Source: Escherichia coli
GTDB taxonomy: Bacteria; Pseudomonadota; Gammaproteobacteria; Enterobacterales; Enterobacteriaceae
Strand: one strand, 5' to 3'
Assembly (NCBI RefSeq): GCF_003334305.1
Contig: NZ_QOWS01000005.1
DNA: 64,000 nucleotides
Shown: positions 42,547 to 48,908 of the stretch, piece after piece
Numbering within the stretch: the first letter of the stretch is position 1
Layout of the letters: each line of letters opens with the position of its first letter
Notes under the pieces: model-generated
What the model was told of the DNA's origin: nothing
The model's input: the letters and a program-made list of their open reading frames with translations, nothing else
The model's database searches: none
Position numbers and translations under genes: made by a program

Positions 42547-43110
42547 ATGAAACTCAAACATGTTGGTATGATTGTCGTTTCTGTGTTGGCGATGTCGTCT
42601 GCTGCGGTAAGCGCAGCCGAGGGTGATGAATCAGTAACGACCACTGTTAATGGCGGTGTTATTCATTTTAAAGGTGAAGTGGTAAATGCCGCTTGTGCAA
42701 TTGATTCAGAATCAATGAACCAAACGGTTGAGCTGGGTCAGGTTCGTTCTTCTCGCCTGGCTAAAGCGGGAGACCTCAGCTCCGCCGTTGGCTTCAATAT
42801 CAAGCTGAATGATTGTGATACCAATGTTTCCAGTAATGCAGCTGTTGCATTCCTGGGTACTACTGTCACCAGTAATGACGATACGTTAGCGCTGCAGAGT
42901 TCAGCGGCAGGCTCTGCCCAAAATGTCGGTATCCAAATTTTGGACCGTACGGGTGAGGTATTAATACTTGATGGTGCCACTTTTAGCGCTAAAACTGACT
43001 TGATTGATGGCACGAATATACTGCCGTTCCAGGCTCGTTATATTGCACTCGGGCAGTCCGTAGCTGGTACTGCAAACGCAGATGCGACCTTCAAAGTTCA
43101 ATATCTATAA
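42547..43110 (+). CDS. Fimbrial major subunit (FimA-like, 187 aa) of an F9-type chaperone-usher operon
   Basis: GGAGA RBS; signal peptide then pilin domain with conserved Cys pair and C-terminal donor-strand motif ending KVQYL. Confidence 0.85.
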
Positions 43111-43151
43111 TTCAATATTAAGGTGGCTATACGTCATCTGAAATTGAAACA

Positions 43152-43180
43152 GGGTGTGTGTGGCATGGTTACGCACACCC
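43152..43180 (+). other. Stem-loop between pilin and chaperone genes (9-bp stem), candidate intra-operon attenuator
   Basis: gggtgtgtg / cgcacaccc inverted repeat 42 nt after the pilin stop; no T-run. Confidence 0.4.
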
Positions 43181-43470
43181 GAGCAATTCACCAATGTGAA
43201 TCTCATTATTAATGAGGAATGGTTTGTATTTGGAGCACTATGAAAAATCACATAATATCTACACGATCAATAAACAACAGTAGTTAAATTTACTGTTATT
43301 TAAAATATTTACTTTGTAGTAAGGTTTTCCTATTAAAAGAGAACCAACATTTTTTACAAACGCATTAAGTCTGGAAACCCGGCGACTCGCCAATGTATTA
43401 GCAACATTTATCGATTGTCTGATGTAACGGTTTTCCCGCTTATCCTCTTAACACATGGAGAATGCATCAG

Positions 43471-44181
43471 ATGCAAACTACGCGTACCCCCTACTCTATT
43501 TCCTTTATGGCGACAGTGTTACTTTTATTGCTCTTTGCTTGCCATAGCACCGTTGCCAACGCAGCTGTCGCACTGGGTGCGACGCGGGTAATTTATCCGG
43601 CAAACCAGAAACAGGTTTTATTGCCTGTCACGAATAATGATCCTGCCAGTGTCTATCTCATTCAATCATGGATAGAAAATTCAGGTGACCAAAAAGACAC
43701 CCAGTTTGTCATTACCCCACCGCTTTTTTCCATGCAAGGTAAAAAAGAGAATACGCTGCGGATAATCAACGCCACTAATCATCAGTTACCAGGCGACCGT
43801 GAAAGCCTGTTCTGGGTGAATGTTAAAGCTATTCCTGCTATGGAAAAAGACCAGAAGAATGAGAATACATTACAGCTGGCAATTATTAGCCGCATAAAAA
43901 TGTTTTATCGCCCCACGAACCTGGCAATGGCACCTGAAGAAGCGCCTGCAATGCTTCGGTTTCGTCGCAGCGGTAGCAAACTCACGCTTATTAATCCAAC
44001 GCCCTATTTCATTACCGTAACAAATATGAAAGCAGGAAATAGCAATCTCCCAAACACCATGGTGCCGCCAAAAGGTGAAGTATCGGTGGATATCACGCAT
44101 GCTGCAACCGGGGATATCAGTTTTCAGACGATCAATGATTACGGTGCATTAACTCCGCGTATTAAGGCAACCATGCAGTAA
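43471..44181 (+). CDS. Periplasmic pilus chaperone (FimC/PapD family)
   Basis: PapD-like chaperone motifs; start placed at the second ATG (better RBS spacing); start uncertain by 3 codons. Confidence 0.8.
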   Translation: MQTTRTPYSISFMATVLLLLLFACHSTVANAAVALGATRVIYPANQKQVLLPVTNNDPASVYLIQSWIENSGDQKDTQFVITPPLFSMQGKKENTLRIINATNHQLPGDRESLFWVNVKAIPAMEKDQKNENTLQLAIISRIKMFYRPTNLAMAPEEAPAMLRFRRSGSKLTLINPTPYFITVTNMKAGNSNLPNTMVPPKGEVSVDITHAATGDISFQTINDYGALTPRIKATMQ

Positions 44182-44222
44182 GCCAGTGACCTAATTAATA
44201 ATAAACTCAATCGGAATTAATA

Positions 44223-46874: not shown

Positions 46875-46887
46875 GGAACAATAGATT

Positions 46888-47418
46888 ATGAAATACAATA
46901 ACGTTATTTTCCTCGGTTTATGTCTGGGGTTAACCACCTATTCTGCTTTATCCGCAGATAGCGTTATTAAAATTAGCGGGCGCGTCCTCGATTATGGCTG
47001 CACAGTCTCATCGGATTCGCTTAATTTTACCGTAGATCTCCAAAAAAACAGTGCCAGACAATTTCCAACGACCGGTAGCACAAGTCCAGCCGTCCCTTTT
47101 CAGATTACGTTAAGTGAATGCAGCAAAGGGACAACGGGGGTTCGGGTTGCATTTAACGGTATTGAGGATGCAGAAAATAATACTCTGTTGAAACTGGATG
47201 AGGGAAGCAATACGGCCTCCGGTTTAGGTATAGAAATACTGGACGGAAATATGCGTCCGGTGAAACTGAATGACCTTCATGCCGGGATGCAGTGGATCCC
47301 ACTGGTACCAGAACAGAACAATATTTTGCCTTACTCCGCTCGTCTGAAGTCAACTCAGAAGTCCGTCAATCCGGGACTGGTGAGGGCTTCGGCAACCTTT
47401 ACCCTTGAATTTCAATAA
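46888..47418 (+). CDS. ydeS: Fimbrial minor subunit (FimF-like, 176 aa)
   Basis: Signal peptide, pilin fold, conserved Cys pair. Confidence 0.8.
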   Translation: MKYNNVIFLGLCLGLTTYSALSADSVIKISGRVLDYGCTVSSDSLNFTVDLQKNSARQFPTTGSTSPAVPFQITLSECSKGTTGVRVAFNGIEDAENNTLLKLDEGSNTASGLGIEILDGNMRPVKLNDLHAGMQWIPLVPEQNNILPYSARLKSTQKSVNPGLVRASATFTLEFQ

Positions 47419-47430
47419 TCAGAGTCAGAT

Positions 47431-47934
47431 ATGAAAAGACTTCACAAGAGGTTCCTGTTAGCTACGTTTTGCGCGTTATTCACAGCAACTCTCCAGGCCG
47501 CCGATGTCACTATCACTGTTAATGGTCGGGTAGTCGCTAAACCCTGCACTATTCAAACCAAAGAAGCTAACGTTAATCTCGGGGATCTTTATACGCGCAA
47601 TCTGCAACAACCTGGTTCTGCATCTGGCTGGCACAATATTACTTTGTCATTAACCGATTGTCCGGTTGAAACAAGTGCAGTGACGGCAATCGTGACAGGT
47701 TCAACTGACAATACGGGTTATTACAAAAATGAAGGTACTGCCGAAAATATTCAGATAGAGCTGAGGGATGACCAGGATGCGACGTTAAAAAATGGCGATA
47801 GCAAAACGGTTATTGTTGATGAGATCACTCGTAATGCACAGTTTCCACTTAAGGCAAGAGCTATCACGGTGAATGGAAACGCAAGCCAGGGAACGATCGA
47901 GGCGCTAATCAATGTGATCTACACCTGGCAATAA
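47431..47934 (+). CDS. ydeR: Fimbrial minor subunit (FimG-like, 167 aa)
   Basis: Signal peptide, pilin fold, conserved Cys pair. Confidence 0.8.
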   Translation: MKRLHKRFLLATFCALFTATLQAADVTITVNGRVVAKPCTIQTKEANVNLGDLYTRNLQQPGSASGWHNITLSLTDCPVETSAVTAIVTGSTDNTGYYKNEGTAENIQIELRDDQDATLKNGDSKTVIVDEITRNAQFPLKARAITVNGNASQGTIEALINVIYTWQ

Positions 47935-47993
47935 CGTCGATTCGATTTTCTTAGCCTTCTTTTTAAATCAATTTTTTAACCTTAGGATATATC

Positions 47994-48908
47994 ATGGGTA
48001 AAACAATCAGTATAAAGGTCCTGTTCGGTATTTATCTTCTATTAATGGCAGGTAAAGTTTTTGCCTTCAGTTGTAATGTCGATGGCGGGTCAAGTATTGG
48101 AGCTGGTACAACCTCTGTTTATGTTAATCTCGACCCTGTAATACAGCCGGGCCAGAATCTGGTTGTAGACTTGTCTCAGCATATAAGTTGCTGGAATGAT
48201 TACGGCGGCTGGTACGACACTGATCATATAAACCTGGTACAAGGCTCAGCTTTCGCAGGCTCTCTACAGTCATATAAAGGATCGCTGTACTGGAATAATG
48301 TGACCTACCCCTTCCCGTTGACGACAAATACCAACGTATTGGATATTGGTGATAAGACACCGATGCCATTACCGTTAAAACTCTATATTACCCCAGTCGG
48401 GGCGGCCGGTGGAGTTGTCATAAAAGCCGGGGAAGTTATTGCCCGTATTCATATGTATAAAATTGCAACATTAGGAAGCGGAAATCCGCGTAATTTTACG
48501 TGGAATATTATTTCAAATAACAGTGTTGTTATGCCAACAGGCGGCTGCACTGTTGATAGTCGTAATGTCACCGTGGATCTCCCGGACTTTCCTGGAAGCG
48601 CAGAAATACCCCTTGGCGTATATTGCTCAAGCGAACAAAAGCTCTCATTTTATCTTTCGGGTGCCACCACTGACAGTGCCCGACAAGTGTTTGCTAACAC
48701 AGCACCTGATGCAACAAAAGCATCGGGAGTGGGTGTCTCTCTGATGCGTAATGGAAAAATACTGGCTACGGGAGAAAATGTCTCCCTGGGAACAGTAAAT
48801 AAAAGCAAAGTACCTCTGGGTTTAAGCGCAACCTATGGACAAACAGGAAACAAGGTTTCAGCCGGAACCGTCCAGTCAGTCATTGGTGTCACTTTTATCT
48901 ATGAATAA
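47994..48908 (+). CDS. ydeQ: Two-domain FimH-like tip adhesin (304 aa)
   Basis: Signal peptide, N-terminal lectin-like domain with Cys pair, C-terminal pilin domain; last gene of the operon. Confidence 0.8.

Follow-up and report, generated by a model that had tools for sequence, protein, structure and literature searches.

An intact F9/Fml chaperone-usher fimbrial operon in a 64-kb stretch of the Escherichia coli chromosome

A six-gene fimbrial region at positions 42547–48908 was analyzed in a 64,000-nucleotide stretch of Escherichia coli DNA (contig NZ_QOWS01000005.1 of assembly GCF_003334305.1), referred to here as the window. We are highly confident that this region is the intact chromosomal F9/Fml (Yde) chaperone-usher operon, the same one known from studies of CFT073 and O157:H7. 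Nothing essential in the finding is new: the operon has been published, the intact allele seen here is common, and the adhesin structure has been solved. Six open reading frames (ORFs) without internal stop codons, all on the + strand, span the region:

42547–43110, + strand: fmlA, F9 major pilin; 187-aa precursor, FimA-like
43471–44181 (RefSeq start), + strand: fmlB, periplasmic PapD/FimC-like chaperone; 236 aa (an alternative in-frame ATG at 43462 gives 239 aa)
44223–46874, + strand: fmlC, outer-membrane usher, FimD-like; 883 aa
46888–47418, + strand: ydeS, FimF-like minor (adaptor) subunit; 176 aa
47431–47934, + strand: ydeR, FimG-like minor (tip fibrillum) subunit; 167 aa
47994–48908, + strand: ydeQ (fmlH), two-domain tip adhesin; 304-aa precursor, with a lectin domain (mature residues 1–160) followed by a pilin domain

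Over its full 64 kb, the window matches the chromosome of E. coli strain A7 (NZ_CP028767.1, from orangutan faeces) at 100% identity. The RefSeq record of that strain annotates the same six coding sequences as intact, in agreement with a first-pass annotation of this DNA that had described six intact, co-oriented genes, and places them between hipBA on one side and ydeP on the other. Gaps between the genes are, in order, 351–360, 41, 13, 12, and 59 nt; the tight spacing that had also been claimed therefore holds for the last four gaps but not for the one between pilin and chaperone. G+C content is 0.41–0.45 in the operon versus 0.50–0.54 in the flanks, and the low operon values fit the published silencing and targeting by H-NS.

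The f9 operon is defined by its position between hipBA and ydeP and by the gene order pilin, chaperone, usher, two minor subunits, adhesin (Wurpel 2014, PMC3966885). Both features are found here, and together with 96.7% DNA identity to CFT073 over window positions 42135–49300 they uphold the earlier assignment to the F9 type. CFT073 has the same six genes (c1931–c1936) in the same order at the same locus, with proteins 97.5%–98.8% identical across all six (pilin 98.4%, YdeS 98.3%, YdeR 98.8%). The six differences in its FmlH all fall in the signal peptide or the pilin domain and none in the lectin domain. EDL933, an enterohaemorrhagic E. coli (EHEC) O157:H7 strain, has an identical FmlA (100%), and its remaining five proteins match at 98.5%–99.4% identity. 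Protein identities of 97.5%–100% to CFT073 and EDL933 confirm orthology to the operons of CFT073 and O157.

DNA upstream of 42135 differs between strains. In CFT073, short-chain dehydrogenase/reductase (SDR) and LysR genes separate hipA from f9, whereas A7 has only the remnant of an AraC-type pseudogene there. This remnant, a frameshifted AraC/helix-turn-helix-type regulator gene at 41906–42114 (+ strand) between hipA and the f9 promoter, is present in the same state in K-12 and O157, and the same AraC-like remnant lies upstream in O157:H7 EDL933 and Sakai (PMC7766294). In O157 hipA is truncated and hipB is absent, whereas both are intact in the window. The B2 strains CFT073, LF82, and UTI89 carry unrelated DNA upstream of 42135 (the SDR and LysR genes), and UTI89 also carries a filamentous-phage-like insert.

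Profile and structure searches identified each component of a fimbrial assembly system. The pilin scored 174 bits against the NCBIfam FimA model, above the cut-off of 140, and its best match among solved structures in the PDB was FimA (E = 7.5e-68). The chaperone matched fimbrial chaperone models and, in the PDB, FimC (E = 4e-87), SfaE (E = 6.5e-87), and PapD (E = 1e-26). The usher comprises the Pfam domains PapC_N (43–195), Usher (213–795), and PapC_C (804–868), together covering residues 43–868; it matched an NCBIfam usher model and aligned to PDB FimD with 1157 bits over residues 20–883. YdeS and YdeR passed the NCBIfam FimF (239 bits, cut-off 200) and FimG (256.6 bits, cut-off 220) models. 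A PapD-like chaperone, an usher with N-terminal, barrel/plug, and C-terminal domains, and Fimbrial-family pilins including a major subunit are all present, and the region qualifies as a complete type-1-like chaperone-usher operon.

The names fimA, fimF, and fimG are given to these F9 genes (42547–43110, 46888–47418, and 47431–47934) by RefSeq/PGAP in many genomes, because the NCBIfam "equivalog" models are passed; this naming artefact could mislead automated fimbrial typing. Taken at face value, the names and the passed FimA, FimF, and FimG models suggest a type 1 (fim) mannose-binding operon. That reading is refuted, and we leave it next to no probability. The chaperone and usher score under the FimC and FimD equivalog cut-offs (256.8 bits against 327 for FimC), and the locus is that between hipBA and ydeP. 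Type 1 fimbriae (FimA–FimH) do share the chaperone-usher architecture and subunit order, and FimA, FimC, FimD, and FimH are the best structural homologs, but type 1 fimbriae have a fimB/fimE/fimS phase switch and fimI, and the F9 operon has neither. The operon neighbors include no fimB or fimE recombinase genes, the upstream side being occupied by hipBA and the AraC-type pseudogene. A fim-type phase switch was considered and rejected: the sole copy in the window of TTGGGGCCA, which we take to be the 9-bp fimS repeat, is at position 2047, far from the operon, with no adjacent recombinase genes. The idea that the gap between pilin and chaperone holds a remnant of fimI or some other gene was likewise rejected, as only short chance ORFs occur there and the gap is non-coding.

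The adhesin decides the question of ligand. It consists of a FimH_man-bind domain (Pfam, 27–171) followed by a Fimbrial domain (185–302) and aligns end to end with FimH, with identities of 50.2% over the mature protein (lectin domain 45.5%, pilin domain 55.5%); the two-domain, FimH-like layout proposed from the sequence is thus borne out. Both the Pfam label of the N-terminal domain ("FimH, mannose binding") and the 50% identity to FimH would favor type 1 fimbriae, but the residues of the mannose pocket are replaced. At the FimH positions that we take to form this pocket (Q133, N135, D140, F142, and the tyrosine gate), the adhesin has K132 for Q133, A134 for N135, L136 for Y137, N140 for D140, and R142 for F142. 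These substitutions switch specificity from mannose to galactose (Gal)/N-acetylgalactosamine (GalNAc), and the lectin domain is identical to that of galactoside-binding FmlH. Specifically, mature residues 1–160 are 100% identical to the lectin-domain chains in PDB 6AOW and related entries, and residues 1–158 to those in PDB 5LNE/5LNG.

The crystallised construct is UTI89 FmlH 1–160, solved with bound TF antigen and galactosides; galactose is contacted via F1, D53, K132, and N140 and the aglycone/GalNAc via Y46 and R142 (PMC5866590). All of these contact residues (F1, Y46, D53, K132, N140, and R142) and the three binding loops are present in the window adhesin. Published ligands include the TF antigen Gal(b1-3)GalNAc, Tn, and Gal for FmlH (PMC5866590), and Gal(b1-3)GlcNAc (PMC3966885) and galactosylated plant xyloglucan (PMC7766294) for F9. 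At the level of the lectin-domain sequence, Gal/GalNAc (TF/Tn) specificity has already been solved experimentally in published work. Since the domain is identical to solved structures, inferring or modelling specificity from the pocket, as the first-pass annotation had suggested, is unnecessary; the Gal/GalNAc-type specificity it anticipated is borne out by the 1–160 identity to ligand-bound FmlH.

Returning to the F9 operon as a whole, its promoter was located by homology to the mapped CFT073 promoter and a consensus scan of 41500–49400, which served only to place this already mapped site:

42261–42290, + strand: f9 promoter; −35 TAGTCA, 18-nt spacer, −10 CATAAT
42297–42546, + strand: AT-rich 5′ leader of ~250 nt, from the probable start G42297 to the pilin start codon

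The CFT073 promoter was mapped by 5′ rapid amplification of cDNA ends (5′-RACE) and has a −10 CATAAT, an 18-bp spacer, and a −35 TAGTCG, with transcription starting at a G that lies 251 nt upstream of the ATG (PMC3966885). The −10 and spacer are the same in the window, the −35 has one mismatch (TAGTCA), and the transcription-start G is conserved; it falls at 42297 because of a 1-nt deletion in the A7 leader relative to CFT073. Published H-NS sites fall within the leader region (PMC3966885). By this conservation, the promoter is predicted to be active in this strain. The scan of 41500–49400 found no canonical + strand terminator after ydeQ.

The comparisons show directly that the genes are intact, what they match, which domains and pocket residues they encode, that the promoter is conserved, and what K-12 lacks (described below); the mechanism draws on the chaperone-usher paradigm and on published work with near-identical operons. 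A sigma-70 promoter would drive transcription from ~250 nt upstream of fmlA; H-NS would silence this promoter at 37 °C, with relief at ~20–28 °C. Sec would export the subunits, and the FmlB chaperone would capture them by donor-strand complementation. The FmlC usher would then polymerise them by donor-strand exchange, beginning with FmlH at the tip, followed by YdeR, YdeS, and many copies of FmlA in the rod. The FmlH lectin domain would bind terminal beta-galactosides/GalNAc, as in TF, Tn, Gal(b1-3)GlcNAc, and galactosylated xyloglucan. This strain is accordingly expected, from sequence, to show H-NS-repressed, low-temperature expression and to assemble galactoside-binding fimbriae.

Several points weigh against this account. 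At 37 °C in vitro, even strains with an intact F9 operon express it poorly (PMC3966885). The −35 is one base off that of CFT073, and every protein, with the exception of the lectin domain, carries a few missense differences from tested alleles. Promoter-like and terminator-like sites over 41500–49400 do not exceed those in shuffled sequences (17 versus 18.7 and 7 versus 6.0, respectively).

The K-12 chromosome aligned by BLAST to window positions 39000–42369 and 45648–52000 with a single junction, which defines the following segment:

42370–45648, no strand: segment deleted in E. coli K-12; 3279 bp, with 1-nt (G) microhomology at the junction

With it K-12 has lost the 3′-terminal 177 nt of the leader, both fmlA and fmlB, and the first 475 usher codons. 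K-12 keeps the f9 promoter and 73 nt of leader, and the remnant at the same locus consists of in-frame usher codons 476–883 (a partial ydeT in RefSeq) and intact ydeS, ydeR, and ydeQ, whose products are 98.9%–99.4% identical to those of the window. The loss of the pilin, the chaperone, and part of the usher from K-12, which the first-pass annotation had stated, was confirmed by the alignment, the junction, and the partial ydeT annotation, and the possibility that K-12 carries the same intact operon was excluded by the 3279-bp deletion. A separate 1896-bp deletion within fml, corresponding to window positions 45742–47637, was found in UTI89 (NC_007946.1, 1646443–1650909). This deletion, which is independent of the one in K-12, takes out usher codons 507 to the end, the entire ydeS gene, and ydeR codons 1–69. 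UTI89 f9 was scored "D" (disrupted) in Wurpel 2014 (PMC3966885), in agreement with this deletion. The strain from which the crystallised FmlH lectin domain was taken thus has a disrupted fml operon itself.

Some part of 41500–49300 was matched in 5424 of 5426 complete E. coli genomes. At least 80% of this region was covered in 3565 of the 5426 (66%), and at least 80% of the segment missing from K-12 in 3538 (65%), counts that are upper bounds on intactness and may include frameshifts and insertion sequence (IS) insertions. These values agree with a published f9 prevalence of 60% in 42 genomes and 61% in the ECOR collection (PMC3966885). In the same study f9 was disrupted in every phylogroup A strain examined (PMC3966885). 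Insertions of IS1203, ISEc23, IS1, IS2, and IS3 are present among the genome matches to the operon.

Such decay raises the alternative that the operon, despite its intact appearance, is cryptic in function in this strain, either permanently silenced or assembly-defective and heading toward the state seen in K-12, UTI89, and IS-disrupted strains. Independent disruptions are common (the 5′ deletion in K-12, the 1896-bp deletion in UTI89, and the five kinds of IS insertion), ~35% of genomes fall short of 80% operon coverage, and expression at 37 °C is very low (PMC3966885). We consider this improbable, as alleles known to build working fimbriae match the six open frames at 97.5%–100% identity, promoter and leader have been conserved, and the operon is intact in the majority of E. 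coli.

Two sequence elements in the intact F9 operon may contribute to its control:

42274–42309, no strand: 11-nt perfect inverted repeat TAAATAACATG / CATGTTATTTA (arms 42274–42284 and 42299–42309), bracketing the −10 hexamer and the probable transcription start
43152–43180, + strand: 13-bp G+C-rich hairpin with a 3-nt loop and no U tract, 41 nt past the pilin stop codon

The inverted repeat is invariant in six strains (A7, EDL933, LF82, CFT073, UTI89, and K-12), and among 500 dinucleotide shuffles, 2 had an inverted repeat of at least 11 nt. Wurpel 2014 (PMC3966885), the source of the promoter mapping, makes no mention of this palindrome, which may be an operator. The hairpin lies in the pilin-chaperone gap (43111–43470), which is AT-rich, contains only ORFs of at most 58 aa, and sits at the position of fimI in the fim operon. 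The RNA fold of 43100–43480 has a z-score of −6.2 relative to shuffles. The hairpin is conserved in five strains with one one-sided G-U/G-C change, in an alignment of very similar strains (97% column identity). It may act as an mRNA stabiliser or partial terminator and could raise the ratio of pilin to assembly machinery. A more speculative proposal, to which we give low credence, is that the palindrome is the operator of a dedicated F9 regulator and that the hairpin and ~350-nt spacer set the pilin-to-machinery ratio post-transcriptionally. If true, the palindrome together with the hairpin and spacer would explain how F9 responds to the environment (off in vitro at 37 °C, but on at 20 °C and in the inflamed bladder), and H-NS would then be only part of F9 control.

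F9/Fml pili matter in chronic urinary tract infection, EHEC colonisation of the calf gut, and attachment to plant tissue, and FmlH is a drug and vaccine target. The window shows a commensal-type primate isolate with the widespread intact allele, whose lectin domain matches the crystallised one exactly. In practical terms the analysis is of use for annotation, namely for the misleading fimA, fimF, and fimG labels and the exact end-points of the K-12 and UTI89 deletions in window coordinates.

The window has further features outside the operon. A large ECSE_1600-family autotransporter gene (34377–39797, + strand; ~1806 aa) is intact here and annotated as frameshifted in K-12 and EDL933. Between marB and eamA (5524–11701) is a six-gene island coding for a 6-phospho-beta-glucosidase, a carbohydrate porin, phosphotransferase system (PTS) IIA, IIC, and IIB components, and a GntR regulator. 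K-12, in which marB adjoins eamA, does not have this island, whose GntR gene (5524–6222, − strand) has an internal stop here and is intact in CFT073. An Rfam scan of the whole window gave no match inside the operon; its sole match was the Hfq-binding small RNA STnc560 (2769–2982, + strand, 282 bits), which is directly downstream of dgcZ and convergent with mgtS/mgtT.

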